Origin: an uncultured Anaerolineae bacterium
Lineage (GTDB): Bacteria; Chloroflexota; Anaerolineae; VGOG01
DNA: 64,000 nt
NCBI GenBank assembly: GCA_964510205.1
Contig: CAZEBW010000012.1
Location: 5,029 to 69,028, forward strand
Reading direction: 5' to 3'
How positions within the stretch are numbered: position 1 is the first letter of the stretch; every line of letters starts with the position of its first letter. A program made the position numbers and the translations under genes. Positions 5,333 through 25,152 of this stretch are shown piece after piece. The notes beneath the pieces were generated by a model. That model had not been told where the DNA came from, made no database searches, and saw nothing but the letters and a program-made list of their open reading frames with translations.

Positions 5333-8300
5333 GTTTCAGTCCCCCGAAGGGGGCTCGTCGTTTTTCTACTCCCATGTGCTGCCTTTGTTACTGCGACCGC
5401 TACGTCTCCGTTTCAGTCCCCCGAAGGGGATTCGTCGTTTTTCTACCCTCAACCTTGGCGGCGGCCTCTCTCCCGAAGCTCTTGTTTCAGTCCCCCGAAG
5501 GGGATTCGTCGTTTTTCTACGAAGTGGATAGAAGCAATATTAGTGTTAGCTGCTATACTCTTTAGTTTCAGTCCCCCGAAGGGGATTCGTCGTTTTTCTA
5601 CGAGAACACGGCGCTGGTTGCCAAGTCTGAGTGGAACGGGTTTCAGTCCCCCGAAGGGGATTCGTCGTTTTTCTACGAATGAGGCCCTGCAGTTCCGGTT
5701 GGTCGCCGGAGAGTTCCTCGCTAGTTTCAGTCCCCCGAAGGGGATTCGTCGTTTTTCTACCTGCGGCTCGCCAGTTCCCTGGGTGAGCGCGTTGCGGTGA
5801 TAGACGTTTCAGTCCCCCGAAGGGGATTCGTCGTTTTTCTACCAGACTGACAGGGGCTCAAGCGCAATACAGGGCCGAGCTTGTTTCAGTCCCCCGAAGG
5901 GGATTCGTCGTTTTTCTACTGATCGCTGTCGTTGCTCTGGTTCTGGTGGTGTGTATCGTTTCAGTCCCCCGAAGGGGATTCGTCGTTTTTCTACAGAGCA
6001 GCGAGGACAGGGCTTCCCGATCAACGAGCGTCTGGTTTCAGTCCCCCGAAGGGGATTGGTCGTTTTTCTACCGGTGCACTACTGCGTGGTTTGCGGGGAG
6101 GAAGATGCTTCCCACCGTTTCAGTCCCCCGAAGGGGATTCGTCGTTTTTCTACTTGTTTCTGGCTTGTGGTCGGACATGCAGTCCCGACCGCAGAAAGAT
6201 CAGGTTTCAGTCCCCCGAAGGGGATTCGTCGTTTTTCTACTTTACTTTACAAATTGCCGAGCGAGTAATGGCTGTGTCTTCGGCAGGTTTCAGTCCCCCG
6301 AAGGGGATTCGTCGTTTTTCTACCCGAAAGACTGGGCGGCGGAGTCAGATAATCTTATCTCGTTTCAGTCCCCCGAAGGGGATTCGTCGTTTTTCTACGA
6401 CGAGGTTGTACTCGTGGTACGCCGGCTCCCTTAACAGGTTTCAGTCCCCCGAAGGGGATTCGTCGTTTTTCTACACCCTGAGCAAGTCGCCGACGACCTA
6501 CCGTTCTAGCTAAGTTCTGGTTTCAGTCCCCCGAAGGGGATTCGTCGTTTTTCTACGCAATGGACGAGCTGTTTGGACGATTGCAAGGAAGGGAGTTTCA
6601 GTCCCCCGAAGGGGATTCGTCGTCTTTCTACCCGCGAGCACAAGCGCCCGCAGGACGAACGGGCACGGCAGGTTTCAGTCCCCCGAAGGGGATTCGTCGT
6701 TTTTCTACGAGGGCAGTGCGGAACTTGCCGGCGGAGATGAAAACAGAGTTTCAGTCCCCCGAAGGGGATTCGTCGTTTTTCTACACGATGTGGAGCCCGC
6801 CCGACGCAGCAAGCATAACCGGTTTCAGTCCCCCGAAGGGGATTCGTCGTTTTTCTACTGAATGAAGAAGACTGTCATGTGGACCTCTCTTCAGGTTTCA
6901 GTCCCCCGAAGGGGATTCGTCGTTTTTCTACGTGGCTGGAAGAGGAAGAGATTATAGACGAGGACCAGTTTCAGTCCCCCGAAGGGGATTCGTCGTTTTT
7001 CTACATGTTGAGTTGGCTGTTGAGCTCTTCGATGTGGTGCGTTTCAGTCCCCCGAAGGGGATTCGTCGTTTTTCTACGTTGTTTCGGGCTTACAACCGGG
7101 CCAGGGTAGCGGATCGTTTCAGTCCCCCGAAGGGGATTCGTCGTTTTTCTACGACGCGGAGATCAAAGCAATCGCTGCCGGCCTAGAGGTTTCAGTCCCC
7201 CGAAGGGGATTCGTCGTTTTTCTACGCTTACACGGGACTGGAGACAATCGGAGGTATGCCGTTTCAGTCCCCCGAAGGGGATTCGTCGTTTTTCTACCCA
7301 TGTCAGGTGATTATGATCACTTGCTTCAAACCATGGCGTTTCAGTCCCCCGAAGGGGATTCGTCGTTTTTCTACGAGGGAAGTCCTCTCCGACGCAGCGA
7401 TAGAGAGCTTCAGTTTCAGTCCCCCGAAGGGGATTCGTCGTTTTTCTACGAAATTGATGGGGACGCAGTCGAGGTAGCAGAAGCAGCGTTTCAGTCCCCC
7501 GAAGGGGATTCGTCGTTTTTCTACGAGCTTCCAGAACATAATGGACGAGGCTGACTTCCAAGCCAGTTTCAGTCCCCCGAAGGGGATTCGTCGTTTTTCT
7601 ACAATGGGCAGGGTCGAATCTCGATTTCGCCCAGCGGGTTTCAGTCCCCCGAAGGGGATTCGTCGTTTTTCTACCGGGCTGCTTCATCAAGCCCGTGCCC
7701 CGCCTCAGCGTTATCGTTTCAGTCCCCCGAAGGGGATTCGTCGTTTTTCTACTCAAGAATGTAGCCCCCAGGCCCAACCAGCTCGCGCGGTTTCAGTCCC
7801 CCGAAGGGGATTCGTCGTTTTTCTACAATTAAGTTCGACCACAAAACCACAAAAGATGGAACCAGGTTTCAGTCCCCCGAAGGGGATTCGTCGTTTTTCT
7901 ACGGCAACCAGCTCATGACACCGGAGATGCTGAGGTACGTTTCAGTCCCCCGAAGGGGATTCGTCGTTTTTCTACAAAATGAAATTCATCCGAGGCTTTT
8001 CAAAGAGAATCGTTTCAGTCCTCCGAAGGGGATTCGTCGTTTTTCTACAAACATAAAGTTTGCCCAAACGGGCAACTTACAAAGGAGTTTCAGTCCCCCG
8101 AAGGGGATTCGTCGTTTTTCTACCAGCTTCATGGAGGTACTAAACGAGTACTACCCAGAGGTTTCAGTCCCCCGAAGGGGATTCGTCGTTTTTCTACAAG
8201 CGACCAGCGTGATACCAGTACTTACTATATCCAAGTTTCAGTCCCCCGAAGGGGATTCGTCGTTTTTCTACCGGCTCAGTCATCTACGAGGTATCACACG

Positions 8301-10932
8301 TGAATCACTGGTTTCAGTCCCCCGAAGGGGATTCGTCGTTTTTCTACCTGCGGCCTGTGGGTAGCCATGAACACCAAGGGCCAAGTTTCAGTCCCCCGAA
8401 GGGGATTCGTCGTTTTTCTACTGGAGACAAAGAGCGCAGAACGTGGCTCAAGTGGACGTGTTTCAGTCCCCCGAAGGGGATTCGTCGTTTTTCTACTATG
8501 GGCACGGGAGCGAGACCATAACGGCCAAGAACCGTTTCAGTCCCCCGAAGGGGATTCGTCGTTTTTCTACCCATGACCAGGCTAATCACGTCTTTCTCAG
8601 AAACCGAGTTTCAGTCCCCCGAAGGGGATTCGTCGTTTTTCTACTATACTTAGTCAGGGCAGACAGTTATCTGTCCCTGAGGTTTCAGTCCCCCGAAGGG
8701 GATTCGTCGTTTTTCTACTCAAGGCCGCGGTCGCCGCAATCGAGAACGAACGCCGCGAGTTTCAGTCCCCCGAAGGGGATTCGTCGTTTTTCTACGCAGT
8801 CACAGGCGAGGGTCTGCCGCAACTGCGCGATAGATGTTTCAGTCCCCCGAAGGGGATTCGTCGTTTTTCTACCCGAGTTGCGAGGCGGCCTGGCGGTTTG
8901 GTAGGCAAGAGGCCAAGTTTCAGTCCCCCGAAGGGGATTCGTCGTTTTTCTACTAGACTACTACGAGGGCCTGGACTATCTCTATGAGGTTTCAGTCCCC
9001 CGAAGGGGATTCGTCGTTTTTCTACGGAAGTTTGCTGGCTCCGCATCAGCGCCTGGGGTAGACTGTTTCAGTCCCCCGAAGGGGATTCGTCGTTTTTCTA
9101 CCTGGCAACGCTTCAACTCTGGTCTGAGAGGCGGCATCCATCGTTTCAGTCCCCCGAAGGGGATTCGTCGTTTTTCTACACGATGAAGAGTCTGGCCGAT
9201 ACGGGGAAGGGCTACTTCGTTTCAGTCCCCCGAAGGGGATTCGTCGTTTTTCTACACGCCTTATCAACGAAACACCCGGTAGGCTAGGCATTTGGTTTCA
9301 GTCCCCCGAAGGGGATTCGTCGTTTTTCTACTTGCTTGACTTGCGTAAGGCGGAGCGGCTGGCGGATCGTTTCAGTCCTCCGAAGGGGATTCGTCGTTTT
9401 TCTACCCAGCACGCCTCCTGGGGCACTGTAGCGCGCTCCACGTTTCAGTCCCCCGAAGGGGATTCGTCGTTTTTCTACGGGTTGGCGCGTGTGTTGAGGG
9501 GGGAACATACCTCGAGTTTCAGTCCCCCGAAGGGGATTCGTCGTTTTTCTACGATATGCGAAGATCCGGCGAGGGCAGGGAAACGACTGCGCGTTTCAGT
9601 CCCCCGAAGGGGATTCGTCGTTTTTCTACCCCCGCTCGGAGCACACAGTTGGCCCGTTGTGTGGGGTTCGGGTTTCAGTCCCCCGAAGGGGATTCGTCGT
9701 TTTTCTACGCAAGCGCGGGGCTACGCTTTCGCAAGACGACAAACGCGTTTCAGTCCCCCGAAGGGGATTCGTCGTTTTTCTACGCAGTATCACCTCAATC
9801 TCCCAACCAATCTTTACAAGTTTCAGTCCCCCGAAGGGGATTCGTCGTTTTTCTACCTATACATAAAAATCAGACTACACAAAGGAGAATAAAAGTTTCA
9901 GTCCCCCGAAGGGGATTCGTCGTTTTTCTACGCTGATGACAAAGAAGAAGCTCATCGATCTGGAGAATAGACAACGTTTCAGTCCCCCGAAGGGGATTCG
10001 TCGTTTTTCTACTGTTAAGAGATGACTTTTGTGTATGAAGTAAAGGTTACGGTTTCAGTCCCCCGAAGGGGATTCGTCGTTTTTCTACTATCCAAGATCC
10101 AGAGGAAACAGCAAAACTGCAAAGTTTCAGTCCCCCGAAGGGGATTCGTCGTTTTTCTACTAGACCGGGAGGAGGTCCGGAAGGTCCTCTACCACAGCAA
10201 CAGGTTTCAGTCCCCCGAAGGGGATTCGTCGTTTTTCTACTAGAAGCTGCTCTCTGGGCTCTGCTCGCTAAGCTCTACGTGTTTCAGTCCCCCGAAGGGG
10301 ATTCGTCGTTTTTCTACCTAGCAAATGCCCAGTGGCATAGGGGTCAGTTGGATAGGGTTTCAGTCCCCCGAAGGGGATTCGTCGTTTTTCTACGTGGTCC
10401 AAGGCTGGCACGCCGCCCATGAGTGGTACTCCTCGTTTCAGTCCCCCGAAGGGGATTCGTCGTTTTTCTACGCGAGGTCACGGCTACAATAAGGGCAAGT
10501 TCTGGTCATATGCGTTTCAGTCCCCCGAAGGGGATTCGTCGTTTTTCTACGATTGACGAGGCCAGCGATCTACACGGGAACGTCTTGTTTCAGTCCCCCG
10601 AAGGGGATTCGTCGTTTTTCTACCAGGAAAGGAGAGAACAGTGAAGAACGATCTCGGTACTATCGTTTCAGTCCCCCGAAGGGGATTCGTCGTTTTTCTA
10701 CGGGTTTACACTCGTGGGATGCGGGAGAGCGAGACCTTCTGGTTTCAGTCCCCCGAAGGGGATTCGTCGTTTTTCTACCTGAAGCAGCTACTGGTTCCAG
10801 CAACCCGGGTATTGTGCCTGGTTTCAGTCCCCCGAAGGGGATTCGTCGTTTTTCTACGAGGCGTCTCGCTGGACGAGGAGGATGACCAAATTGAGGTTTC
10901 AGTCCCCCGAAGGGGATTCGTCGTTTTTCTAC
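5333..10932 (-). CRISPR. CRISPR array: 74 repeats of 37 bp, 73 spacers of 35-50 bp
   Basis: repeat GTTTCAGTCCCCCGAAGGGGATTCGTCGTTTTTCTAC on the plus strand, enumerated at 5333, 5410, ... 10896; the first (5333) copy is degenerate (GGGGGCTCG), consistent with a trailer end; minus-strand repeat ends ...CTGAAAC, giving an 8-nt Cas6 5' handle; leader and cas genes lie on the 10.9-kb side. Confidence 0.95.
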
Positions 10933-11222: not shown

Positions 11223-11510
11223 TCACACTACGATGGCCCCAGGTTCCTCGTGCAGCACCTCTACCCCGCTGGTGACCTCTGTCTGGCGCACACACCCGGC
11301 GCAAAGGTAATAGTACCGCACTCTGTCTACCCTCGGCCTGATTACTCTGGCCGTGGCCTTCTTCATCCGCCTCAGTTCCTCCTTGTCCAGCAAGCACTCG
11401 AACACGCTGTACTGCACCGGCGAACCGTAGTTCAGCAGGGTGTTGTGCAGCTTCGTCCGCCGACGATCGTTGGAGATATCGTAGACTACAAGTACGAACT
11501 GCTTGCCCAT
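11223..11510 (-). CDS. cas2: Cas2
   Basis: MGKQFVLVVYDISNDRRRTKLHNTLLNYGSPVQYSVFEC matches the Cas2 signature; ATG at 11510 chosen over the upstream GTG ORF start. Confidence 0.85.
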   Translation of the reverse strand: MGKQFVLVVYDISNDRRRTKLHNTLLNYGSPVQYSVFECLLDKEELRRMKKATARVIRPRVDRVRYYYLCAGCVRQTEVTSGVEVLHEEPGAIVV

Positions 11511-11602
11511 AGTATATCTCGATCCAATCAAGATGGCAAACATGCAAAACGTGAAACGTGAGACGTAAGACGCGAGGCGTGAAACCCAGGGCCTGGAACG
11601 TT

Positions 11603-12598
11603 CTATTTGGCTAAGAAAGGCAAGTAGACTTCTGCTTCCCCCTCGATCACCTTGCGCATCAGACGGGCCTGTACCTCGAAACACTTCTGGTAGGTCAACC
11701 GCCGCCCGGCTAGAGGATGGATGACCTCGGTCTGCAAGCGGTCCGTGTACTGGCTCAAGAATTCCCGTAGACCCGAACGCCGCAGGAGCACACCCCCCTT
11801 GTCACCAGGCCGGAAATCGTCCGGCGTCAATATCCGCTTGTTCACCACCGTCAACACCACCGAGTTCACGATCACACTGCGGAATTCCTCCACCAGGTCC
11901 AAAGCCAGCGCGGGGCGACCGTATTTGTCAGCGTGAAAGAAGCCGTCGTACGGATCCAAGCCCACTACTTCCAGGGCCGTCATCATGTTGTGCCCCAACA
12001 GAGTGTATCCCAGGCTCAGCATGGCGTTCACCGGATCGCCTGGTGGCCGCCGCACCCGCTTCTCAAAACCCCACTCCGCTGGCATCGCCTGACGGAACAC
12101 CTGGAAGTAGGCTCGCGCACCCACACCCTCCAGCCCACGGAGGGTGCCCAACTCCGGCGCGTCATCCACTTGCTTGATGGCCGATGCAATCTGCTCGATG
12201 GTTCCATCGTCTATCTCCGCATGATCCCGACACAGCCGCCGCGCCAGGGTGCGCTCGTTACGCAACTTGCCCCCCACGATGGCCCGCCCTATCTCCAGGC
12301 AGAATCCGTCGTCCAACGCCCGCTGGTACTGCTTGTGCCGCAAGGGGATGTTCTTGGCCATCGGCGGCGTCAGCCGTCCGCGCAAGGTCCCGCTGCGGCT
12401 GACGAAGGCCAGCTCGATACCGGCGTCCAGCAGAGCCAGCAAAGCCGGCGTGGTGGCCCCCGTCCAACCCACCAGTACCACGTCCGATACCCGACTCAGA
12501 GGCACCCGCAGCAGGACCTCGTCCTCTTTGGTCACCAACAAGCGGCGATATTCTTTCTCGATCCGCGCCCCTTGCTCGGTCACGTACAACGTCGCCAT
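11603..12598 (-). CDS. cas1: Cas1
   Basis: NAMLSLGYTLL...GLDPYDGFFH...ALALDLVEEFR Cas1 motifs; start MATLYV at 12598 (the ORF extends to 12697). Confidence 0.9.
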   Translation of the reverse strand: MATLYVTEQGARIEKEYRRLLVTKEDEVLLRVPLSRVSDVVLVGWTGATTPALLALLDAGIELAFVSRSGTLRGRLTPPMAKNIPLRHKQYQRALDDGFCLEIGRAIVGGKLRNERTLARRLCRDHAEIDDGTIEQIASAIKQVDDAPELGTLRGLEGVGARAYFQVFRQAMPAEWGFEKRVRRPPGDPVNAMLSLGYTLLGHNMMTALEVVGLDPYDGFFHADKYGRPALALDLVEEFRSVIVNSVVLTVVNKRILTPDDFRPGDKGGVLLRRSGLREFLSQYTDRLQTEVIHPLAGRRLTYQKCFEVQARLMRKVIEGEAEVYLPFLAK

Positions 12599-12717
12599 TG
12601 GGCGGCCCTCATGTTCGAGGTTGGGCAAGGTCTCTGACCGCAGCTCCTCGTAGCGCCAGCCTGAAGAGCTGATGCCGAGCGAGGTTGCCAGCGCCACCTG
12701 TTCACGGCGGCGTGTAT

Positions 12718-13638
12718 TTACTCGTACCCGTCCGGCACATAATCGTAGAACAAGTAAGGGTCGAAATCCCCCTTGACCTCGATGCGTTTATTCTCGCACA
12801 AGAAGCTGTAGGTGTCCCGATAGAAATGCACCCCCAGGTAGTCAAATCCCTCGTCGAAGTGAGTGATGGCCGTCTTGTGCGGCTCCAATTGCAGCTTCAA
12901 CCCAGCCAGGATGCGCTCCGTGTCTCGCCAGGACGCCTCCACTTCGTCCCGGTCGGCACAGAAGACACAGAAATCATCAGCATACCGCACCGGCCGATAG
13001 CCTTGCTCTGTGAGTCCCACGTCCAGACGATGCAAGTAGATATTGCACCATAGAGGCGAGATCACCGCTCCCAGTGGGATGCCCACCGCCCGCTCCGGGT
13101 CGCGCCGGCCGATCCGCAGCCACTGCTCCATTAGCCGCAGCACGACGGGATCATCCACCTCCTCCTGCACGAACTCTATCAGCAGGCCGTGGTCCAGGCT
13201 GTCGAAACATTCATCAATGTCGCCATCGAGCACATATTGCCAGCCCGCGTCGCGGTGGTGGAGGATGGCCTGCACCGCGTCGCGCAGCCCCCGCCCCTGC
13301 CGATAGCCGGTGCTGCAATCGAGAAAATGACGGTCGAAACGATCATCCAGCACCCGCAGCACGGCCCGCTGCAGCACGCGGTCGGTCACCGTCAGGATGG
13401 ACAACTGACGGAGTGAGCCATCGCGCTTGGGCACGTAGAAACGGCGCAGCCGCCGTGGACGGTAGGTATTGGCCCGCACCGCCGCCGCCAGATTGACCAG
13501 CCGCTCTTCCCACCTCCTCCGCCAGCGCTTGACGCTCACCTCGTCAATGCCCGCTGCCCCCTTCTTCCGCGCCACCTCTTCCCAGGCCTCCCGCATGTTC
13601 TCCGCTTGCAAAACGCGATCAATCAACCTCTTGGTCAT
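12718..13638 (-). CDS. group II intron-like reverse transcriptase, CRISPR-associated, not fused to Cas1
   Basis: RT motifs including RYADDFCVF (YADD); N-terminal RT domain 0-like region; sits directly upstream of cas1. Confidence 0.9.
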   Translation of the reverse strand: MTKRLIDRVLQAENMREAWEEVARKKGAAGIDEVSVKRWRRRWEERLVNLAAAVRANTYRPRRLRRFYVPKRDGSLRQLSILTVTDRVLQRAVLRVLDDRFDRHFLDCSTGYRQGRGLRDAVQAILHHRDAGWQYVLDGDIDECFDSLDHGLLIEFVQEEVDDPVVLRLMEQWLRIGRRDPERAVGIPLGAVISPLWCNIYLHRLDVGLTEQGYRPVRYADDFCVFCADRDEVEASWRDTERILAGLKLQLEPHKTAITHFDEGFDYLGVHFYRDTYSFLCENKRIEVKGDFDPYLFYDYVPDGYE

Positions 13639-13768: not shown

Positions 13769-14557
13769 TCACCTTGTCCCTTGAACCCTCGTCTGCCCCA
13801 ATCCCATAGTCGTCTTGTGCCCCGTGCCGCAGTAGAAAGCGTAGGCGGCCAGGGTGTGCAGCAGGCGCAGCCAGTAGGGATCGCGGCGCAGGGCGCGAAA
13901 GGAGCAGCGACCCACGAAGCCGATGAACGTAGCCGGCCCGAAGCGCACCACCCGGCTCCTCAGCCGATAGCGGCTCACGCCCACGCACTCCTCGGCGAAA
14001 CGCTTCAGATCGGGATGCAGCGACAGCGGGGCGAAGGTGTTCCACTTGTTCAGCCAGTGGTCGAATACCAATCCCGGCAGCGGGAAGGGCTGATGCTTCC
14101 CTTGGGAGCGAAAGGTGGTCGGCGTGGCGAACTCCAGGTTCAGCCACGGTGGGGGATCCTCTGCTCCCAGCAGGTGGCCCTGGGCCAGGGCCTCGTAACT
14201 CGTCTGCCCGGCCCAGGCATGATCCGTCCCGTCTGCCGTGGCCCCCGCCACCTGGAACAATTGATCGGCCAGCATCAACGTGTTGGGCAGATTGGGCAGT
14301 ATTTGCTCCTCGAGTATGGCGGCCACTTCGGCCGTCAGCGCGGTCAGGCGCAACCAGGGCTGCTGGCTGTGACGCTGCTCGGCCCGCAACGCCACAGTGT
14401 AGGGTCTCAGTCCATTACCCTCGTGCAATGTCGCTGCCAGGGCAGGATCTGCCGCCTGTGCTTGATCCAGAAACCAGGCCTGGGTCGCCCGTCCCAGGTC
14501 TGGCCGCTGTTCATCCGCCTCAGCAGCCTGCAATTTGATCACCGCACTAACCAGCAT
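13769..14557 (-). CDS. cas6: Cas6 endoribonuclease
   Basis: C-terminal glycine-rich loop GTGHKTTMGLGQ (GxGxxxxxGxG) and RAMP-like fold features. Confidence 0.75.
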   Translation of the reverse strand: MLVSAVIKLQAAEADEQRPDLGRATQAWFLDQAQAADPALAATLHEGNGLRPYTVALRAEQRHSQQPWLRLTALTAEVAAILEEQILPNLPNTLMLADQLFQVAGATADGTDHAWAGQTSYEALAQGHLLGAEDPPPWLNLEFATPTTFRSQGKHQPFPLPGLVFDHWLNKWNTFAPLSLHPDLKRFAEECVGVSRYRLRSRVVRFGPATFIGFVGRCSFRALRRDPYWLRLLHTLAAYAFYCGTGHKTTMGLGQTRVQGTR

Positions 14558-14618
14558 CCAGAATCTCCAGCCTCAGGATGTCAACGCCCCCGTCGGATAC
14601 GTTGTTCAGGCATGTTTG

Positions 14619-15788
14619 TCAGAAGAAGGTGTCTGAGAGCTCAGGGTCGTCCTTTGCCAGCCACAACCTCTCTGCCACCTCCCCCATCTCCAGTTCCTCC
14701 AGCCGACCCTCGATCTCTTCCAGCTTCTCCCACACACTGGTCCCTTTCGGCACCCAGCCCATCTTCCAGTCCAGGTCAGCGATGAGGCGATCTGGGCGCA
14801 TGGTCAGGAAATATCCCCAGTCCAGCGCCTCTTCCAAGTAGGAGATCAAACCGGTGGCCCAATCGTGGAAGGGTTCGCTCCCCGGCAGGAAAGCCCAGCG
14901 GATTTGGGCCACTGCCTCCAGCCGCGTGCCGACCACAACCAACTGGGAGCCACGGTGCAGCTTGAGTCGTTGCAGAAATACCTGCATGGGCTGACTTTTC
15001 CGCCCAGCCACCGCCAGTTGAGGGTAGGCTCGTATCTTCACCTGGCCGAAGCGCCGATGGGTCAGTCGCCAGAGCCATCCTCCTTCCCTGTCGGTCTCGC
15101 TTTCCATATCCACTGTCTGCGGCCACCACAGGCGCCACTCGTCTGGCCTCTGGTCGGCGTGCAGGAAGGGATTGTCGCACAGAGGTGGGGGCAGGTCACT
15201 GACGGACAATTGTTTCGCTGGTAAGTCCACTTTCCACCAGCCATAGGCCGCTTCGGGGCCCAGGGAATCCTCACCGTAGCGATGCAGGACGCACAGCAGT
15301 AGGTACTGCAAGAGATCGGCGTTGGTGGAGGCGATGAAGTGCTGAAAGGGAGTTCCTTGAGTAACAGCTTCACGCCATGAAGTAGCGAAGGCCTCTGTCT
15401 GCGGCGCGTTCTTGGGATAGCGGCGGGCGAAGGCTCGCCGGGCGTGTACCGTCACCTGGTACGAGCGGCGCTGGGCTACGCCGGGGCGGCCAGATGCAGG
15501 CCAGTGGTAGGGCAGCCAGACTTCGACGAGGGCGCGTCTGCTCTCCGTGCGACTGTAGAGGAGCGCCACGCCGAGCGTCAGAGTTAGGGTGATCAGCGCT
15601 CCAACGCTGAAGGCCAACCATTGCTGTCCCAGGGTTTCGCCGCCGGGCCACAGGGCTTCGTAAAGCCCACTGGCCAACAGGTTGAGAATCGTCCCCAGGG
15701 CCACCGTCACCAGCACCAGGGCCACCAGTTCCCCCCGTGAGCGGCGGATGGTCTCGATCTTGCTGTAAGGTGATCTACGGCGTCGCAT
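14619..15788 (-). CDS. uncharacterised membrane protein embedded in the cmr operon
   Basis: 389 aa; two N-terminal TM helices (LVALVLVTVALGTILNLLASGL, LAFSVGALITLTLTLGVALLY) then a soluble domain with no recognised motif; overlaps the upstream gene by 14 nt. Confidence 0.5.
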   Translation of the reverse strand: MRRRRSPYSKIETIRRSRGELVALVLVTVALGTILNLLASGLYEALWPGGETLGQQWLAFSVGALITLTLTLGVALLYSRTESRRALVEVWLPYHWPASGRPGVAQRRSYQVTVHARRAFARRYPKNAPQTEAFATSWREAVTQGTPFQHFIASTNADLLQYLLLCVLHRYGEDSLGPEAAYGWWKVDLPAKQLSVSDLPPPLCDNPFLHADQRPDEWRLWWPQTVDMESETDREGGWLWRLTHRRFGQVKIRAYPQLAVAGRKSQPMQVFLQRLKLHRGSQLVVVGTRLEAVAQIRWAFLPGSEPFHDWATGLISYLEEALDWGYFLTMRPDRLIADLDWKMGWVPKGTSVWEKLEEIEGRLEELEMGEVAERLWLAKDDPELSDTFF

Positions 15789-16680
15789 CGCTCACCGCTT
15801 CCCAGATGCCGTAGGGGCCGACGAACAAGGGGGGCACATCTCCCTCAAACCGTCCGCCTGGGGCCCAGGCAACAATCGGTTCAGAGACATCCTGACCAGC
15901 CCCACGCCGCACTCCCCCTCGCTGGCCATTGGCCCACTCCCGACCCACCACAGGTTCCAGCGGTCCTTGTACTGGCATGTGGACACTTTGCGACACCTTC
16001 AGGTGGGCGTGAAGAGTCCTCCCACTCAGGTCGCGCGGCCGTGGCCACCGGCTAGTCCCCACATTAGGGCCGACCCACTCGCTGTGTCGCACCATTCGCC
16101 CAAAGCCATAGCCCTGTTCTCCGCCGACAAAGAGTTCTGTCAGATAGCCCAAGATCGTGGCGTCGTCCAGGTCTGCTAACGGCGGTGGGGCCACTGAACG
16201 GTCCTGATCCAGGTACAGGTAGCCTTGCAGGTAGACCGGGCGAGCAGGAGGCTGGTCTGTTTGCGTCTGAGGAGCGATGAACTCGATCTCGTGCAGGGAG
16301 GCTTCCTCCGCCGTCCAGGTAGAAGCAGTCAAGGCCGTGCTGCCAAAGGAGCCGATGAAGCGGGCCTCAAAGTCGGCGGCCGGTAGATCGCCATAGTGCC
16401 AAGTTCCTTGCTCCAGTCGGGGGTAATAAGGTCCCTCGCCGGCCAGCTTCAGGTAGAAGTAACTGGCGATAACGCGATCACGGACATAATCGCCCACAGC
16501 GAGGTAGTCGGTGGGTCTTGGCTGTGCGTAGCAGGCCCGTGTCAGCCGGGCAGTGATCGCGCCCCACATATCCCGCCCCGGCAGGTAGTAGCGAGTGCGC
16601 TGGATGTTACCCAGCTTGCGATAGCCGATGTGCAGAGGTGATGAGAGGTGGTAGGTCAGTTGATAGCTGTGCCAAGCCAT
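15775..16680 (-). CDS. type III RAMP, Cmr3-like (Cas5 family), tentative
   Basis: LSSPLHIGY...YYLPGRDMWGAITARL plus C-terminal G-rich GGEQGYGFGRM; start MAWHSY at 16680 preceded by GAGGAG RBS. Confidence 0.5.
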   Translation of the reverse strand: MAWHSYQLTYHLSSPLHIGYRKLGNIQRTRYYLPGRDMWGAITARLTRACYAQPRPTDYLAVGDYVRDRVIASYFYLKLAGEGPYYPRLEQGTWHYGDLPAADFEARFIGSFGSTALTASTWTAEEASLHEIEFIAPQTQTDQPPARPVYLQGYLYLDQDRSVAPPPLADLDDATILGYLTELFVGGEQGYGFGRMVRHSEWVGPNVGTSRWPRPRDLSGRTLHAHLKVSQSVHMPVQGPLEPVVGREWANGQRGGVRRGAGQDVSEPIVAWAPGGRFEGDVPPLFVGPYGIWEAVSDATP

Positions 16681-16693
16681 GCTTCTCTCCTCA

Positions 16694-17059
16694 TCAAGGT
16701 AACGACCGCAGACCATAGCGGGCGTATATTAGAGTGCGCTCCACTAGCTGCTTGGCCAGGAGCAACTTCCGCAAGTCTTCAGTCATCTGTACGACCGCGT
16801 CGTCGTCGCTTCCCTCTGGTAATGGCGCACCGACGGTGTTGTGTCGCAGCAATGCCCTGAGCAAGCTCCATACATTCTTGGTTGGTTGGTCCAGATTGCG
16901 GTACTTCAAAAACAGGTAGAAGGCATAGAAGCCATCCTCTTGCAGTACTCCCAGGGCATTGTTCAGACGGTTTTCCAGGTCCTTGTTACGGGTGGAGCCA
17001 CTTAGCTCCACAATGCTATTCGCGCAATCGGCGCAATGGGCATCTAGGTTCGTCGCCAT
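16694..17059 (-). CDS. cmr5: small alpha-helical subunit, Cmr5/Cas11-like
   Basis: 121 aa helical protein between cmr4 and a RAMP gene; strong GGAGGAGG RBS. Confidence 0.5.
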   Translation of the reverse strand: MATNLDAHCADCANSIVELSGSTRNKDLENRLNNALGVLQEDGFYAFYLFLKYRNLDQPTKNVWSLLRALLRHNTVGAPLPEGSDDDAVVQMTEDLRKLLLAKQLVERTLIYARYGLRSLP

Positions 17060-17060
17060 T

Positions 17061-18083
17061 TCACACCTCCTCCAGATTCAACACTCGCAACCGGCCCATC
17101 CCCCGGGTGTTCATTCCTCCCACTCCCAGATGTTCCATCAGTGCCACTCCCTGCTCCACGTGTTGGCGTACCCAGGCGATGTCGTGGGGAATGGTGCGCA
17201 TCCCTTCGGTGGTCTGATCCCTGATTTGGAAGTGCTGCGGGTTGTTATAGACCACATCGAAGTAGAAAACTGTGGCCCTGGGCAAGGCCTCGTAGGTAAA
17301 AAGAGCCTTGTCGTCAGCAGCACCTGTTTCTGGGTCAATGGCTACCGAGGTACGCACTTCCAGATTGTCGTTCACCACCTTGCTGAACAGTTCATCGGAA
17401 AGCAGCACGAGCCGGTCAAAGACCTCGTCAAGCGCGGGATTGCCCGCCGGCAGTTCAGGCAGTGCATCGTGAATACTCCCATTCTCCAGATCATCCCCTG
17501 TCTGCAGCAGCAACCACCCCAGGTTCAGCCGGGTTAGCTGCTGGTTGGAGGCAGGGTGCAACGAAGGTGCTAGGGATACTTGGCCCGTCGACACTTGAGG
17601 CGGGTGCGCCATTCCCGCCCGGCCCAGGGTGCCAGGAGACGTGACCCAGACCGGCCCAACCATGGAGTGCACCGGAAAGAACAGCACCCGGGCATCAAAG
17701 AACTGAGCCATGCCCTGCAGGCTTTGCTGCGTGCGACCGTTGGAAAAGCCGAAGGACACACAGACCGGACAATCCGGGTGGCAGCAGTGCTCCTCGCCGA
17801 AGTCACCACCCTTGCCAGCGCAACTGACTGTCCTTATTTCGGGAAGGTCATTCGGCCCCCGCTCTACCTCCCGTCGGGTCTGATAGCGCCCGGTTCGCAT
17901 GGCCGTATAGGTCCGGGCTACTCCGGAGAGACTGCTGCCGGGGATCTTAGGCAGGTTGTCGCCCGGCTCGCGGATGATAGACAGATCCACCCGGCCCAGC
18001 CGGTACCCCCCGGTGCCCACGTGAATTGGATCCAGTGCCAAGGCATAGTACCGCTGGCTGTGAAAGATGTTTCCATTGCTCAT
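17061..18083 (-). CDS. cmr4: Cmr4 (Cas7 backbone RAMP)
   Basis: LDPIHVGTGG...IPGSSLSGVAR and C-terminal G-rich GVGGMNTRGMGRLRV; ATG overlaps the cas10 stop (ATGA). Confidence 0.85.
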   Translation of the reverse strand: MSNGNIFHSQRYYALALDPIHVGTGGYRLGRVDLSIIREPGDNLPKIPGSSLSGVARTYTAMRTGRYQTRREVERGPNDLPEIRTVSCAGKGGDFGEEHCCHPDCPVCVSFGFSNGRTQQSLQGMAQFFDARVLFFPVHSMVGPVWVTSPGTLGRAGMAHPPQVSTGQVSLAPSLHPASNQQLTRLNLGWLLLQTGDDLENGSIHDALPELPAGNPALDEVFDRLVLLSDELFSKVVNDNLEVRTSVAIDPETGAADDKALFTYEALPRATVFYFDVVYNNPQHFQIRDQTTEGMRTIPHDIAWVRQHVEQGVALMEHLGVGGMNTRGMGRLRVLNLEEV

Positions 18084-21061
18084 TGCTCTGCTCCTTTCTC
18101 TTTCAGGATTTGCATGTGCAATTCTAGACAATCAAAGAACAGGCCATCCAGCATGGCCTGGCGGAGCCCCCTGTAGGCGGGGCTCTCTGGTGTGTAGACA
18201 GAAAACTCCTTGCCCAGAACCTGGGTGACCAGTTTCTCATACGTTTGCCATTCATTACCCGTTCGTTCCTTCTCAGCCAGGCCCCATTCCTCGAAGCGGG
18301 TGGCCAGCAAGTCACGGATTCCGTGCAGCTTGGTAGTGGTCATGCCGGTCGACCAGCACCACTGCCAGATCTGCTCCATCCGGCGTGAGTCTTCCAGTAG
18401 GTAGGGGCGGGGACTGTGGCGTGGGCCGAAGAGCGGATGGGGGCGCCGGCCGGTCGCCTCGTCCAGACGTATGTCGAAGCGGCGGGCGGATGTATCCAGG
18501 AAGATGTACTCAAAGCGGGATGGATGGACCTGGATCTGCTCACGGGGAGATACGGAACTCAAAGAGCCCAGGTACCATTGATCGCTGATTTCTTCATCGC
18601 CCATTTTCAGGGCAACAAGCCATTCCACGCCGTTCTGGAAGACGATGCGGCGTTGATCACCATCGTCCATCACCTCTTGGACCGGCCAAGTTTGGCGTTC
18701 ATTCGGGAAGGCCAGCATCCGCCGTCCGGCATCCAGGACCGCATAGAGAGGGATGTGCCGGTCGAAGAAAACCAGCCCTAGGTGAATAGGCAACCGATCT
18801 CGCACCCGACCCATCTCTTCTTCATACCGACCGCGGATTCTACCGACTGCTGCCAGCGCCTGTGCCCCTGGCACTAACGCCATGAAGAGGAAAGGTTCCG
18901 TAAGCAGAGAGATGTAGGGCTTATAGGGTGTAGGGTCTGGCTCCGCCCCTGTGATGCGAAAATCACCGGCTTTGACACTGGCCCGACCATAGCCGGATGG
19001 TTCGTAGAGTGTCACCGGCCCTCGCAGCTTCCTGCCCCATTCGTCCGAGGATCCCCCCAAGGACTTCAACCTAGTGGCTGTGATCAGCTTGAGCCTGTCT
19101 GAATTCCATACTAAGGGCACGTCTCCGAAGGAATACCGAGCCTCGTAGACGTGAAATTTGCCGGGCAGGGCTGGTGGTTCCGGAGTCAATTCTAGCCGTC
19201 TTTCTTCTTCCCACAGCACCTGGTTGAGAATCTGAGTCTCTGCTTCTTGCCAGAAACGATGTGTGGTTTCCCATGTGCGGCGCAGGCGGGCAAAAGACGG
19301 GTTCTTGGGATGACCAGGGGCCGCCAGCAGGGAGCGGATGTAGCTCCCATCCAACCAGTTCTCCAGACCGAAGCGACCCACGACCAAAGCTACGCGGCCA
19401 TGTTCGTCCGCCACTTCGTCTATCCAGATTGTGCGACTCAAGAGGCCATCTTTGTTCCGAGCCCAATCTTGAGAACGACGACCACGCCGGGCCAGACACA
19501 CGCCGCACAGTTGGCGTTTTTGAGCCTTATCGGGGTCTCTGGCAAAGTTAGGCAGATCCGCTTCTACGTATCCCTGTGGCCGCACCCCGCAGATCGAGCA
19601 GACTTCGGCCCCCACCCGCTGCCGCCAACTCTGCCGGATGAGGCCGGGTTCGGCCCAGAGTGGGGTTCGTTGGGCCAGGAGCCCGCCTAGTTCGGTTGCC
19701 TGGCGGGAGGGTTTAGATAGTGGTATTGGCTGCAGTATCACCTCTCCCCGCAGGCGTTTGCGGAAGGCTTGCTGGATTGTGTCTTTGACTAGGGTGACGA
19801 TCACCAGCCCTTCATTGTCGCCGTCCAGGGCTGGCACCAGGAAGGCACTGCCATTCTCGTCGCGATAGATCTCGTTCCCCAGAGGGGAGATCACCTCTAT
19901 GGCCCGCTTCACATCGTTCAGAGCGTCCTCCAGGACAGCCTTGCGCCCCAACAGATCAGTGACGTGGTAAGCCTGTTCCAGATAGCCCAGGCCGTCGTAG
20001 CCCACTCGTAACAGCCGCCATTGGATGCTGTTAACCTCTGGGAATGTGTAGCTTGGGTTTCGCGTCTGTTCCAGCAGAATCTTGGCCAGGGCAGCCTTGT
20101 ACAGGCTGGCCACAGAGAAGGAGTGGTCCCACAAGGTCACGTCATTGGCGGCACGGCGGGTTTCGCCCAGGGCCCGGCGGAAGGCAACCTCGGTGAGTTT
20201 TCGTAACCCCTCGACCCACCCGTCTGCTGTTGGCCAGCCGTCGTAGAGGATCTCCTGCCAGAACTCAGGGGGCAACGTATGTCCGGCAGGCAATTTAGCT
20301 CGTTCTGTCCCGACACGCTGTAGGACGAGGGCCAGGTTATTGGCGTAGTTATGGCGCACTTGTTTCAGTTCGTCGGTTTTGATACGCAAGCTATCCGGCT
20401 CGTGGCCGAAGGCGGTGGCGATGCAGGTGTCGCCGAGATGTTGTTTAAGGCCACCTTTGTCAGCCCCGGCCTTGTCTACGGCCGAATCCGCACCATCACA
20501 ACCCTCAAATCCTGCCGTCAGAAGTTGCGTCGCTGGTCCGTGTACAGCGAGTAGCGGGGAATGATGTGCCTCGAGGAAATCACCTATGGTTCGTTTCTCT
20601 TCGGATGGCCAATGAAAGGTCAGGTGCAAGTCATCCAGCAATTGAAGAAGGCTGTCCGGCAGAAAGTCGTCGGGAACAAGAGCCTCTTCCCTGATAACCC
20701 GTCTACCCTCGGCATCGCTAATCTTGAGCCACAATTCATCCATTTGTTGCCAGATATGCCCCTTCGCGTGCCCCCGTTCTTCCCGGCTAACACCCTCATC
20801 TGGTAAACTCTTGGCCCAGTCTTGGACTTTCCGCCTGAATGCGGCTTCTACCTCCTTGCTGGTTACAGGATCGAGCGAATAGTAGCTTCTCATCGCTCGC
20901 CTCAGCACAAGGTGGTGCTCAAAGCCTAACTGTTTAGACAACTCAGCTTGAACAGCCACAAACTCCGCGCTCAACTTCCCCAGGTCGTGGATCAGCGCCC
21001 CAATCTCGGCCAGCAGGATCAGGGCGCGGTGCTGCTCCAAAGTGGCTAGTAGGTTACTCAT
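18080..21061 (-). CDS. cas10: Cas10/Cmr2 with N-terminal HD domain
   Basis: 993 aa; HD motif LIHDLGK; treble-clef CSICG...CGVCLARRG between the palm domains; the palm-2 region aligns but appears to lack GGDD (SLLTEPFLFMALVPGAQAL). Confidence 0.85.
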   Translation of the reverse strand: MSNLLATLEQHRALILLAEIGALIHDLGKLSAEFVAVQAELSKQLGFEHHLVLRRAMRSYYSLDPVTSKEVEAAFRRKVQDWAKSLPDEGVSREERGHAKGHIWQQMDELWLKISDAEGRRVIREEALVPDDFLPDSLLQLLDDLHLTFHWPSEEKRTIGDFLEAHHSPLLAVHGPATQLLTAGFEGCDGADSAVDKAGADKGGLKQHLGDTCIATAFGHEPDSLRIKTDELKQVRHNYANNLALVLQRVGTERAKLPAGHTLPPEFWQEILYDGWPTADGWVEGLRKLTEVAFRRALGETRRAANDVTLWDHSFSVASLYKAALAKILLEQTRNPSYTFPEVNSIQWRLLRVGYDGLGYLEQAYHVTDLLGRKAVLEDALNDVKRAIEVISPLGNEIYRDENGSAFLVPALDGDNEGLVIVTLVKDTIQQAFRKRLRGEVILQPIPLSKPSRQATELGGLLAQRTPLWAEPGLIRQSWRQRVGAEVCSICGVRPQGYVEADLPNFARDPDKAQKRQLCGVCLARRGRRSQDWARNKDGLLSRTIWIDEVADEHGRVALVVGRFGLENWLDGSYIRSLLAAPGHPKNPSFARLRRTWETTHRFWQEAETQILNQVLWEEERRLELTPEPPALPGKFHVYEARYSFGDVPLVWNSDRLKLITATRLKSLGGSSDEWGRKLRGPVTLYEPSGYGRASVKAGDFRITGAEPDPTPYKPYISLLTEPFLFMALVPGAQALAAVGRIRGRYEEEMGRVRDRLPIHLGLVFFDRHIPLYAVLDAGRRMLAFPNERQTWPVQEVMDDGDQRRIVFQNGVEWLVALKMGDEEISDQWYLGSLSSVSPREQIQVHPSRFEYIFLDTSARRFDIRLDEATGRRPHPLFGPRHSPRPYLLEDSRRMEQIWQWCWSTGMTTTKLHGIRDLLATRFEEWGLAEKERTGNEWQTYEKLVTQVLGKEFSVYTPESPAYRGLRQAMLDGLFFDCLELHMQILKEKGAEQ

Positions 21062-22343
21062 GGAGTACCTCCTCTCGCAACGCGGCAGCTAATCTATCGG
21101 CTACCCTGTCCAGGTCCGCCAGATCCACACGATCCGTCTCTTCCTGCAAGGGTACCATCTCCGGCTCCGACACGACAGCCGTCTCAGTTGGAGGTGGCGG
21201 TTCGCGCCAAGTGTGAGCTTCTCTGTCCCAATCCGGGTGTCGCTTACGCAGTCTCTTGTATTGGCTGGTGCGGCTTCTCCCCCAGTCGCTCTCGTCTAGC
21301 TCAGCGTTTGTCCAACGGGGAAAACCTTCCAACTGCATTCGCTGGACGAAATCAGCGATGTCTGCTTCTAGACTGTCATCCGAGTCCTTTGGTGCCGCTT
21401 CCTCTTGAGTCTCCTCGGGTGGCATCCGGCTCACTAAGGCATGAACACCCCAATAGAAGTCACGCACGTATGGCTTAGCCAGGCCGAAGCCGCTGGTCCG
21501 CTTGGCCGAAAAGCCCACGGTCCGAAACATGGCCTCCAAGCCTCCTGCTATTTGCTGCAGGTGATGACCTACCTCGGCTTTGTAGTCTGTCCAGGGTAAC
21601 CCCGCTCTATCAAAGGGTACGTACAGCAAGGAAAAGACGCCTCGTGCGCCAGCCGGCACGCATTCCAGGCTAAAGGGGTCCCGCCCGCTCCCACTCTCTC
21701 GATCATGTGGGTTGAGCATCTCCAACTCCAAGGCATCGAAGTGGGTGGGATAGAACCGTAAGCGTCCGGCGCGGAAATAGCCATCGGGCACAGTTCCTTC
21801 TGGACGTGGTGGCCCAAACAGCAAACAGAAGTCGTCATTCTCTTGGTCGCCATTTTGCCAGCGCATAGCTGCCCGCAGATTTCCTTTCCACCCGCTGCCT
21901 CCGAGCATCGGCACCTTGAAAGCCCACTCCTTGCGCAAGGGGTTGTCGTGAGGATAAAATGGTGCATCGTCCTTGCTGATGAAAGGCTCTTGTAGTGTGA
22001 ATCGGAATTGCAGAGCGAATGATCCCATTGGCAATGTCCCCAGCACACCGGCATCCAAGCGCGGCCGCAGCAGTCCCAGACAACGCAGACGTCTCTGCTC
22101 AGAGGCGATCAAGTCGCCAGTGTAAGGTGTAGGACCTTGCGTTCGATGAACTATTTCCCTGTAGTGTCTACGTTCTTTAGCCCAATCAGAATCCGGAAGT
22201 GAAGTGAGGGCCTGAATCTGGGACAGTAGCCTCAGTTGCCCATAGCGATCCCGGACTTCGCTGAAGGCGTCTTCTCGTCCTATCAGGGCATCAGCATCTC
22301 TCTCTCCCCTGATCACAAATGTAGCGTGCCAATCGTAGCTCAT
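21054..22343 (-). CDS. type III RAMP, Cmr6-like (Cas7 family), with C-terminal extension
   Basis: KVPMLGGSGWKGNLRAAMR (G-rich loop-type motif) and FGLAKP; start MSYDW at 22343 with AGGAGG RBS. Confidence 0.55.
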   Translation of the reverse strand: MSYDWHATFVIRGERDADALIGREDAFSEVRDRYGQLRLLSQIQALTSLPDSDWAKERRHYREIVHRTQGPTPYTGDLIASEQRRLRCLGLLRPRLDAGVLGTLPMGSFALQFRFTLQEPFISKDDAPFYPHDNPLRKEWAFKVPMLGGSGWKGNLRAAMRWQNGDQENDDFCLLFGPPRPEGTVPDGYFRAGRLRFYPTHFDALELEMLNPHDRESGSGRDPFSLECVPAGARGVFSLLYVPFDRAGLPWTDYKAEVGHHLQQIAGGLEAMFRTVGFSAKRTSGFGLAKPYVRDFYWGVHALVSRMPPEETQEEAAPKDSDDSLEADIADFVQRMQLEGFPRWTNAELDESDWGRSRTSQYKRLRKRHPDWDREAHTWREPPPPTETAVVSEPEMVPLQEETDRVDLADLDRVADRLAAALREEVLHE

Positions 22344-22354
22344 ATCTCCTCCTT

Positions 22355-23497
22355 TCACACTAGCAGGCTAGTCAAGAACGTCCCTACGTTTCCTATGCAG
22401 GATACCGTATCGCGGGATGAGTTGAACTCACGCCAGACAATGGAAGTCAAGTCCACCAATGGTGGAGCGCCGAAAACATCTCGCCAGAAAGCCGAGCTAT
22501 GCAACAACATGTGCAGATCGTTCAGGAATGCATCTCGATCGAAGTCCCGTCTATGTCGCGGCAGCCAGCCCCATACCCGGAAAGGCCACTGCCCGTCATC
22601 TGGATAAGCGCCCGAGATGTTTATTTTGGCTTTGCGACGTTGCCGGCCAATGTGCCCCCAAATGTGCCGTTGATTTCCCCAAGTGGCTGCAAAGGCATTG
22701 CTCCCGTAGCGAAGTTGGTTCTTCACCGCAGGTGCAATTGAAACAGATCCAGGGCTCCCTCCCCCCCATCGCTCCAGAGTGGTAGCATGAGCACCCAAAA
22801 GAGGACGCCTATCTGAATTTGTTCGCGTCCACCACTGGTCGGCAGCATCGGCCACCAGCCGGAAGCGGGCAAAGAAGAAATCGGTCAGGGACGGGAGCGG
22901 CCCCCTATACAATGTACCAGTCGAGTAGTGGGTCAGGAACTTAGCTAAGTCTACAGTGACCGGTTGATCATCCTTTTCGGCCTTGATCCTCACTACGCCG
23001 TAACCGTGCTGGGTTCGAGCTCCTATGCCTCCCCAGGTTGCGGCCAGTTGCATGGTTACCAGCACTCTGTTGGCTACATCATCTTGATCACCGCGTAGCA
23101 CGATCAATCGCCCGTTGACACCCGTGTCCTCTGTGGCGAGCCGACCGGCTCCATAGAACCAACCAGTTCTGCGGCCTGGGGGTTTGAATCTGCACCAATC
23201 TTGCTTATCCCGTTGGGGATAGGCGAGTTGCCCGGTATCCAGTTGCAGGCGAAACTTCCGCCCCCAGCCGGTGCAACCGAATAGATCGCAGGCCACACAA
23301 TGCTCCCGATCTGCACATTGGTTTCCTCCTGGCACCGTCGGGTCACATGCATCCTCCCCCAGCCCCCGCACAATGGCCTCGTACCACCACCGCAGGCTGC
23401 CGATGATGCCCGTCTCGTGCACGCGGTCGCAGGTGCCGTCCACCCCGCCCGTCCACAGCGGGGTCAATGTATGCAGCTTGATCTCCATAGACCTCAC
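22355..23497 (-). CDS. cmr1: Cmr1-like RAMP
   Basis: LTPLWTGG...GSLRWWYEA (Cmr1 WW signature) and CVACDLFGC zinc motif; GTG start. Confidence 0.7.
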   Translation of the reverse strand: MRSMEIKLHTLTPLWTGGVDGTCDRVHETGIIGSLRWWYEAIVRGLGEDACDPTVPGGNQCADREHCVACDLFGCTGWGRKFRLQLDTGQLAYPQRDKQDWCRFKPPGRRTGWFYGAGRLATEDTGVNGRLIVLRGDQDDVANRVLVTMQLAATWGGIGARTQHGYGVVRIKAEKDDQPVTVDLAKFLTHYSTGTLYRGPLPSLTDFFFARFRLVADAADQWWTRTNSDRRPLLGAHATTLERWGGGSPGSVSIAPAVKNQLRYGSNAFAATWGNQRHIWGHIGRQRRKAKINISGAYPDDGQWPFRVWGWLPRHRRDFDRDAFLNDLHMLLHSSAFWRDVFGAPPLVDLTSIVWREFNSSRDTVSCIGNVGTFLTSLLV

Positions 23498-25146: not shown

Positions 25147-25152
25147 GCGAAA

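Follow-up and report, generated by a model that had tools for sequence, protein, structure and literature searches.

A two-transmembrane protein family at the end of type III-C CRISPR effector operons, and its possible role as a membrane accessory

The characterized membrane accessories of CRISPR systems with a layout like the one described below, Cam1, Csx23, Cap1, CorA and Csx28, are all membrane-depolarising effectors (PMC11229360; PMC12642688; PMC12669027), and those so far known from type III systems (Cam1, Csx23, Cap1 and CorA) all need a nucleotide signal that Cas10 produces. Cap1 is a tetrameric pore in which TM1/TM2 hairpins form an outer and an inner ring (PMC12642688), CorA effectors are stably linked to a type III subtype (bioRxiv 10.1101/270033; PMC12669027), and the membrane pore Csx28 is activated in dependence on its nuclease partner by a route that is still unclear (PMC12669027). 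Type III-C is listed in surveys as lacking cyclase sites and as having no known effectors (PMC11229360; PMC12669027). Here we describe a gene for a two-transmembrane (two-TM) protein in a III-C locus of an uncultured Anaerolineae bacterium (Chloroflexota), carried on contig CAZEBW010000012.1 of assembly GCA_964510205.1; the 64,000-nucleotide stretch that was analysed, positions 5,029 to 69,028 of this contig, is called the window throughout. We tentatively propose, at somewhat less than an even chance, that the protein is a dedicated III-C accessory, a membrane effector or amplifier that would work independently of cyclic oligoadenylate. Signal-independent action is proposed because III-C Cas10, to judge from its sequence, cannot make such molecules. 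Membrane accessories of type III systems are already known; what is new is one tied to a cyclase-dead subtype and without a detectable nucleotide sensor.

The surrounding system is, by its profile matches (Cas10c, the CAS-III-C form of Cmr5, and Csx11) and its gene order, of subtype III-C. The cmr1-cmr6-cas10c-cmr4-cmr5-cmr3 operon continues into the two-TM gene, and all genes from position 23497 down to 11223 lie tightly packed on the minus strand (Table 1). A first-pass annotation, made from the sequence without database searches, had placed the gene in a cmr-type operon behind a RAMP gene. The cmr genes and the upstream gene are there, while the subtype had to be corrected from generic cmr to III-C and the RAMP gene is now identified more sharply as Cmr3, of the Cas5 group, by PADLOC. 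That annotation had also expected co-transcription with the effector genes, which is supported by the location of the only strong promoter-like site, upstream of cmr1, and by an overlap with cmr3 described below. A GGD[DE] or G[GAS]D[DE] motif is absent from the window Cas10c and from eight orthologues (9/9), and the Palm2-equivalent stretch reads FMALVPG. The N-terminal HD motif is kept as HDLGKLS in all nine proteins (IHDLGKLS in the window). In a Palm1-like region before its four-Cys zinc finger, Cas10c also has a motif, Y-R-D-E-N/D-G, that is conserved in 8/9 orthologues (residues 399-404 of the window Cas10c) and leaves a small chance of some non-canonical Cas10c chemistry.

The two-TM gene is real and conserved. 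It starts with ATG, encodes 389 aa, and overlaps the 3′ end of cmr3 by 14 nt (15775-15788), as is evident from the DNA, in which cmr3 ends with ...GAT GCG ACG CCG TAG and the two-TM gene begins with ATG CGA CGC CGT AGA (MRRRR...). The cas6 gene starts 61 nt past its stop codon; both the overlap and the place directly before cas6 had been noted in the first-pass annotation and were confirmed. In an alignment of 38 homologues the motif MRRRxSPYSxIExxRRSR (residues 1-18, nt 15735-15788) is kept from the first residue on, in support of the start codon. A word-indexed search returned 54 homologues, which are 41-100% identical, ~380-390 aa long and without a Pfam domain; those that bear a name are all annotated as hypothetical. 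The ratio of nonsynonymous to synonymous substitution rates (dN/dS) is 0.22-0.25 between orthologue pairs. The homologues and this ratio speak against an artefactual open reading frame (ORF), nor do the homologues turn out to be housekeeping genes from outside CRISPR. A plus-strand ORF of 438 aa (13469-14785) overlaps cas6 and the two-TM gene on the opposite strand; it is rich in Pro, Arg and Ala, is not the conserved frame, and looks more like a by-product of high G+C content than a gene.

The position of the gene is conserved well beyond the window. Genomic context could be read in ~26 distinct loci from the gene calls of the contigs and from our own ORF and BLASTP mapping, and in ~21 of these 26 the gene lies directly 3′ of cmr3 of a III-C operon, which bears out the earlier description of an accessory embedded in a type III effector operon. 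A stop/start overlap with the upstream gene, of 1 to 23 nt, was present in 8/9 gene-called loci. The place after the last effector gene is kept even in members that are 13-25% identical to the window protein (L016 and L020, both III-C, and the Csm-like L019; loci are given as L numbers), and it is the same across Chloroflexota, Deltaproteobacteria metagenome-assembled genomes (MAGs) and Poribacteria. The downstream neighbour varies: it is cas6, a reverse transcriptase (RT) gene, or directly a CRISPR array (L001, L029), and an RT follows in 12 distinct loci, including the distant L016, L019 and L020. The gene remains at the end of the effector operon in L001, L029 and L036, in which adaptation genes are absent or elsewhere; in L036, cas1 is upstream on the other strand. 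In L029 (11268-12524), arrays directly follow the gene, with no cas6 or adaptation genes within 1.4 kb of sequence, while in L001 (11646-14541) a four-repeat mini-array, formerly called as an 87-aa gene, separates it from cas6, past which lie two further arrays with different repeat variants. In L019 (124-3642), a Deltaproteobacteria-type member follows Csm3-, Cas5- and Cas7-like (III-G-like) genes rather than cmr3 and precedes RT-cas1-cas2, the Cas10 of this locus being off the contig. Because of these neighbours, the family is not strictly limited to III-C effectors.

The family is small. A profile search of 1.84 billion protein representatives found only 124 members, and a genome scan found seven loci, all in Chloroflexota MAGs; distant clusters come from Deltaproteobacteria MAGs, Candidatus Poribacteria and Promineofilum. 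No relative was found on viral contigs, and none on plasmids by tblastn with the window protein and two distant members. The canonical cyanobacterial III-C locus, on a plasmid of Anabaena cylindrica, has no member by profile search, so the family marks a III-C sub-lineage and was rejected as a universal III-C subunit. No name or description of it was found in the libraries searched or in PMC11229360, PMC6546367, bioRxiv 10.1101/270033 and PMC12669027. The sole accessory cluster that Shah et al. 2019 (PMC6546367) list as 'Type III-C specific' is C3a152 (Cylst_6373). Like our family it is linked to III-C, and it could in principle be the same family; the related cyanobacterial locus of A. cylindrica lacks ours.

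The protein is predicted to be an inner-membrane protein anchored by a hairpin, with its N-terminus and a C-terminal part of ~310 residues in the cytoplasm. A Kyte-Doolittle scan finds two hydrophobic segments with cores at 17-35 and 58-76, and the AlphaFold2 model of the full-length protein (predicted local distance difference test, pLDDT, 85; predicted template modelling score, pTM, 0.76) has helices at 9-46 and 53-77 in agreement with this hairpin; the two N-terminal TM helices of the first-pass annotation are thus borne out. Based on the positive-inside rule, the N-terminal net charge of +6 points to an N-in/C-in hairpin with the large domain cytoplasmic, and the short loop between the helices is slightly acidic. 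Paired TM segments occur in 123/137 full-length members, and R3, P7, Y8, R18, L24, T28 and G32 are invariant in the N-terminal region of aligned homologues. A Tat (twin-arginine translocation) signal was considered for the RR-rich N-terminus and rejected; the hydrophobic positions of the Tat motif are missing and a two-TM hairpin comes next. The hairpin also gives sub-threshold Pfam matches to Phage_holin_3_6 (Holin-X; 6/47 members, best E 0.0019), DUF4231 (4/47) and 2TM (1/47). The C-terminal helix has heptad-like spacing of Leu and Ile (IEGRLEELE) and, in the alignment of close homologues, conserved residues L356, R362, L363, L366 and E367, and it is a possible coiled-coil or oligomerisation element in the model.

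Between these helical elements lies a domain for which no relative was detected. Residues 80-345 (~265 aa) are modelled at pLDDT >90 in the full-length protein, and the cytoplasmic part modelled separately reaches pLDDT 93.8 and pTM 0.84. No family was found for the protein in Pfam, NCBIfam or PADLOC profile scans, none of 47 diverse members matched a Pfam family above threshold, and PDB sequence searches with two profiles returned only TM-composition noise such as claudins. Foldseek searches of the PDB (two models) and BFVD gave nothing below E 0.018. The first-pass annotation had seen no CARF, SAVED or CorA domain and no match to known families, and both the sequence searches and the structural search agree with it. 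The top Foldseek matches in the PDB were, for both models, nearly all of the Bet v1/START/SRPBCC type (PYL receptors, CalU16, CERT START, PITP) and all non-significant (E >= 0.095, TM-score <= 0.27, root-mean-square deviation 6-9 Å). The order of elements (strand, helices, six strands, long helix) is compatible with a helix-grip fold, a likeness of the model that we treat as a lead only. Conservation of at least 80% across 137 full-length members is confined to Y110, W310, P223, N206, P93, L159, L314, R18, D323 and G32, and Y110 and W310 are invariant in the 47-member diverse alignment. An enzyme with a catalytic His pair was rejected, since H169 and H244, although every member of the close clade has them, are not retained across the wider family, and the failure of both alignments to reveal a catalytic-looking residue set conserved family-wide argues against any enzymatic role.

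Compared with the described systems, the protein shares with the cA4-gated Cap1, Cam1 and Csx23 (types III-A/B/D) an N-terminal TM pair that follows a cytoplasmic N-terminus, a sensor-sized cytoplasmic domain, a C-terminal helical element and a type III locus. Unlike these proteins, it has no CARF, CARF-like, SAVED or Csx23-type domain by Pfam, PADLOC, NCBIfam or Foldseek-PDB, and its cytoplasmic domain has roughly double their size and consists mainly of antiparallel sheet; because its partner Cas10c lacks GGDD, gating by cA4 would be unavailable to it. Csx23 has a small tetrameric cA4-binding C-terminal domain, whereas the ~265-aa domain described here is built differently, and no Csx23 chain came up in Foldseek-PDB or in the PDB sequence search. 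CorA effectors (III-B/D), which use SAM-AMP, are likewise two-TM proteins with a bulky cytoplasmic part, but their TM pair is C-terminal and belongs to a CorA fold, while the present protein has an N-terminal hairpin and no Pfam CorA match, its locus has no NrN or SAM-lyase partner, and its Cas10c has no SAM-AMP synthesis site. By analogy, Csx28 with Cas13b may be the best functional parallel for a signal-independent membrane arm, as it is a membrane accessory of an RNA-targeting effector (type VI-B, enhancing Cas13b) that uses no second messenger. Csx28 nevertheless has a single N-terminal TM helix and a divergent HEPN-like helical domain and forms an octameric pore, in contrast to two TM segments and an alpha/beta domain; the proteins differ in size and layout and show no sequence or Foldseek similarity (no Csx28 chain was among the PDB matches), and the partner of Csx28 is the class 2 effector Cas13b rather than a multi-subunit III-C complex.

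A few members have left CRISPR loci altogether. Member P0050 (L003) is followed, at 30 nt, by the first of two NACHT NTPase genes, and P0053 (L004) divergently adjoins a gene for a 1295-aa NACHT protein, without Cas genes in either locus; across these loci the NACHT proteins are homologous to each other, at 33% identity over ~900 aa, and have weak Avs2-like matches. P0056 (L039) likewise has no Cas neighbours. These three members form one subclade nested in a CRISPR-linked clade in a neighbour-joining tree without support values, so their departure from CRISPR appears to be secondary, and they are under purifying selection (dN/dS 0.22) and keep the N-terminal motif. The two NACHT arrangements without Cas genes fit a portable effector better than a CRISPR-specific part. 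Their layout resembles the sensor and membrane effector of NACHT/Avs STAND systems with separate or fused effectors, with the difference that just two loci have it and that gene orientation differs between them. The NACHT NTPases themselves (L003 6658-13223; L004 2632-6519) have an N-terminal domain of ~340 aa with a conserved R-N-x-x-x-H motif (IRNLLFH, IRNSLAH, IRNRLAH), and one of them matches the PADLOC CARF_HEPN profile at E 0.014, while Pfam finds nothing; by its motif, this domain may be a HEPN RNase.

In the mechanism that we propose, the III-C complex would recognise target RNA, and the cytoplasmic domain of the two-TM protein would sense this recognition by binding directly to the complex, with Cas10c as the likeliest partner, or by way of some generic nuclease product. 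Oligomerised hairpins would then perturb or depolarise the membrane, and the infected cell would be slowed while the HD nuclease and Cmr4 act. Oligomerisation, a pore or depolarising activity, the trigger and contact with the complex are all inferred. In favor of an effector are the precedent of the depolarising accessories named above, the lack of a catalytic-looking residue set, the fixed place after the effector genes, which persists when adaptation genes are missing from a locus or lie elsewhere in it (L001, L029, L036), the predicted N-in/C-in topology, which would place the large domain facing the Cmr complex, the apparently cyclase-dead Cas10c with its HD motif kept (9/9), and reuse of the same module beside NACHT NTPases. 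The weak holin-like matches of the hairpin could be read in the same way.

Other observations weigh against this proposal, among them those on which module the gene follows. Mantel tests on pairwise identities between loci of the clade around the window protein, which use small samples and non-independent pairs, show that the divergence of the two-TM protein tracks that of RT (rho 0.82, p 0.0004, n=8) and Cas1 (rho 0.77, p 0.002, n=7) but not that of Cmr3 (rho 0.12, p 0.16, n=16), Cmr4 (rho 0.04, p 0.39, n=13) or Cmr5 (rho 0.01, p 0.42, n=15). The value for Cas6 was 0.50 (p 0.072, n=8), and covariation with Cas10c, the best candidate for activation by contact, was only moderate (rho 0.46, p 0.023, n=8). 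Pairs within each module gave high values (Cmr3 with Cmr4, rho 0.82, p 0.0002, n=13; RT with Cas1, rho 0.83, p 0.0004, n=7), and the contrast between Cmr3-Cmr4 and the three values near zero speaks against an extra core Cmr subunit such as Cmr7. Three module swaps, in L009, L026 and L013, have their breakpoint between cmr3 and the two-TM gene. L009 shares with the window the same repeat core and 73% identity for the two-TM protein, 58% for Cas6, 81% for RT and 87% for Cas1, compared with 37-47% for every Cmr gene and Cas10c, whereas L026 is 76-84% identical in Cmr3/4/5 and 55% in the two-TM protein, and L013 is 54-71% identical in the Cmr genes and 46% in the two-TM protein. The reverse of the L009 pattern, an effector half that is closer than the half from the two-TM gene through cas6-RT-cas1-cas2, is thus seen in L026/L010 and L013. 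The swaps indicate that the cmr1-cmr3 effector cassette has been exchanged without the two-TM gene, while a partner tightly docked on the Cmr backbone ought to show covariation with that backbone. In addition, the A. cylindrica locus shows that III-C can do without the family, the cytoplasmic domain has no recognisable sensor fold, and the Holin-X and DUF4231 matches of the hairpin are insignificant, typical of TM composition, and not evidence. A role ancillary to the effector complex is no more than plausible, because divergence follows the RT-Cas1 side and not Cmr3/4/5.

A rather unlikely alternative is a non-toxic membrane anchor or scaffold, which would tether the III-C ribonucleoprotein, and possibly Cas6 or RT-Cas1-Cas2, to the inner membrane at the site of phage nucleic acid entry and thereby speed detection or acquisition. 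The cytoplasmic location of the large domain, the conserved Arg-rich N-terminal motif, the coiled-coil-like C-terminal helix, the lack of catalytic residues and the fixed place between effector and processing or adaptation genes would all suit a tether. A tether needs a specific docking partner, however, yet covariation with Cmr3/4/5 is missing; the NACHT-linked subclade has no CRISPR machinery to hold, and a CRISPR membrane protein that is purely an anchor is not described in PMC11229360, PMC12669027 or PMC12642688.

The covariation with RT and Cas1 fits an accessory of the adaptation side, one that belongs with the cas6-RT-cas1-cas2 half and aids or regulates RT-dependent spacer acquisition or CRISPR RNA processing, and this we regard as unlikely. 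The genes that L009 shares with the window (those of the two-TM protein, Cas6, RT and Cas1, together with the repeat core, and not those of Cmr/Cas10c) and the downstream RT of 12 distinct loci point the same way. The correlation may, however, reflect nothing but vertical inheritance of the two-TM protein, RT and Cas1 while effector cassettes move. In L001, L029 and L036 it still closes the effector operon although adaptation genes are missing or located elsewhere, and in 8/9 loci the gene that it overlaps, stop to start, is the effector gene before it. RT, Cas1 and Cas6 are all missing from the NACHT-linked subclade, and a membrane protein acting in adaptation is not described in the literature surveyed.

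A regulator or sensor, whether a modulator in the manner of Csx27 or a protein that tunes CRISPR activity in response to the envelope or to lipids, is improbable. The Bet v1/START/SRPBCC matches and the order of elements would allow a helix-grip pocket that might bind a hydrophobic ligand, but all of these matches are non-significant, no ligand-binding residues could be mapped onto the domain, and it has no regulatory DNA- or RNA-binding domain. Independent defence, or an unrelated cargo gene riding in the operon, is most improbable: the members outside CRISPR (L003, L004, L039) and the NTP_transf_2 (MNT) and HEPN pair found between cmr6 and cas10c in the Ardenticatenia locus (L040, L041 and L042, ~3274-4230), which looks like toxin-antitoxin-type cargo inside an effector operon, are outweighed by a position kept at 13-25% identity across several phyla, by conserved translational coupling to the upstream gene and by the lack of any copy on viral contigs or plasmids.

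If the two-TM protein is the membrane effector that we favor, a wider picture can be drawn, which we consider doubtful in its entirety. Cyclase-dead III-C would have its own membrane arm, a two-TM protein of new fold switched without cyclic nucleotides, by Cas10c contact or by a nuclease product; its helix-grip-like domain might act on lipids, the module would later have been captured by NACHT STAND proteins, and its co-inheritance with cas6-RT-cas1-cas2 could couple interference and RNA-derived spacer uptake to the membrane. The family is a candidate for how a cyclase-dead type III system might trigger a cell-level response and for why RT-linked Chloroflexota III-C loci keep a membrane component, and from its NACHT-linked offshoot it seems that the module can pass from one immune sensor to another. 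Because the family is small and the gene compact, direct tests are practical.

Table 1. Positions in the window of the type III-C locus and of the regions of the two-TM protein.
Feature	Residues	Position	Strand	Evidence
Promoter-like site upstream of cmr1		23697-23669	minus	promoter scan; only strong site of the operon
cmr1, first operon gene		22355..23497	minus	NCBIfam Cmr1, E 6.6e-17
cmr6		21054..22358	minus	PADLOC Cmr6, E 1.2e-59
cas10c/csx11, large subunit		18080..21061	minus	PADLOC Cas10c, E 2.8e-151; NCBIfam Csx11, E 1.7e-107
cmr4, Cas7 backbone RNase subunit		17061..18131	minus	NCBIfam TIGR02580, E 2.7e-30, above cutoff
cmr5, small subunit		16694..17059	minus	PADLOC Cmr5/CAS-III-C small subunit, E 1.9e-29
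cmr3, Cas5 group		15775..16716	minus	PADLOC Cmr3, E 5.6e-69
Two-TM protein of unnamed family		14619..15788	minus	ORF, homologues, dN/dS
Predicted transmembrane hairpin, TM1 and TM2 with short outside loop	17-79	15552..15740	minus	hydropathy, charge, AlphaFold2
Predicted cytoplasmic alpha/beta domain, seven-stranded antiparallel sheet and helices	80-345	14754..15551	minus	AlphaFold2
Predicted long C-terminal helix, heptad-like L/I spacing	352-380	14649..14735	minus	AlphaFold2
cas6		13769..14557	minus	Pfam CRISPR_Cas6, E 1.6e-20
Stand-alone group II intron-like RT, YADD motif, unfused to Cas1		12718..13638	minus	Pfam RVT_1, E 8.5e-32
cas1		11603..12697	minus	Pfam Cas_Cas1, E 7.9e-91
cas2		11223..11684	minus	Pfam CRISPR_Cas2, E 4e-22
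CRISPR array, 74 repeats		5337..10923	minus	pattern search, 74 matches vs 0 expected; Tandem Repeats Finder

Downstream of the two-TM gene, a complete module of cas6, stand-alone RT, cas1 and cas2 is joined to the III-C effector. The RT, which also matches NCBIfam group_II_RT_mat below the cutoff (E 6.7e-78), fits the pattern of 'RT-CRISPR clade 9', a Chloroflexi clade with RT separate from Cas1 for which no complete operon was available to Toro et al. 2017 (PMC5541045). The true start of cas2 is probably later than listed, since its domain spans residues 63-134 of the ORF. The repeat core of the array, CAGTCCCCCGAAGGGGATTCGTCG, recurs in 74 copies at a spacing of ~72-87 nt. The one clearly degenerate copy lies at the low-coordinate end, so the leader probably adjoins cas2, and the array and the cas operon would share one direction of transcription.

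Two observations concern individual members of the family in other loci. In L034 (2-774), a member is split over two frames on a 1.3-kb metagenome contig, the mark of a frameshifted pseudogene or else of an error in the assembly. In L018 (1947-4832), a 961-aa protein is encoded directly 3′ of a distant member; near its N-terminus lies an HD-like motif, and a further stretch is like a degenerate Cas10c Palm2 (FLLMVPG ... QPLYNVM). It may be an extremely divergent Cas10, but the hhalign probability is just 7.7%, and this locus was not counted as CRISPR context. Finally, directly upstream of the cas operon in the window, five genes form a tight minus-strand cluster (23950-29192) that encodes a 719-aa protein with two HATPase_c-type domains, proteins of 420, 223 and 128 aa without a family, and an HhH-GPD/EndoIII-like protein with a weak PADLOC match to 'type II nicking endonuclease'; this cluster may be a neighbouring defence system.

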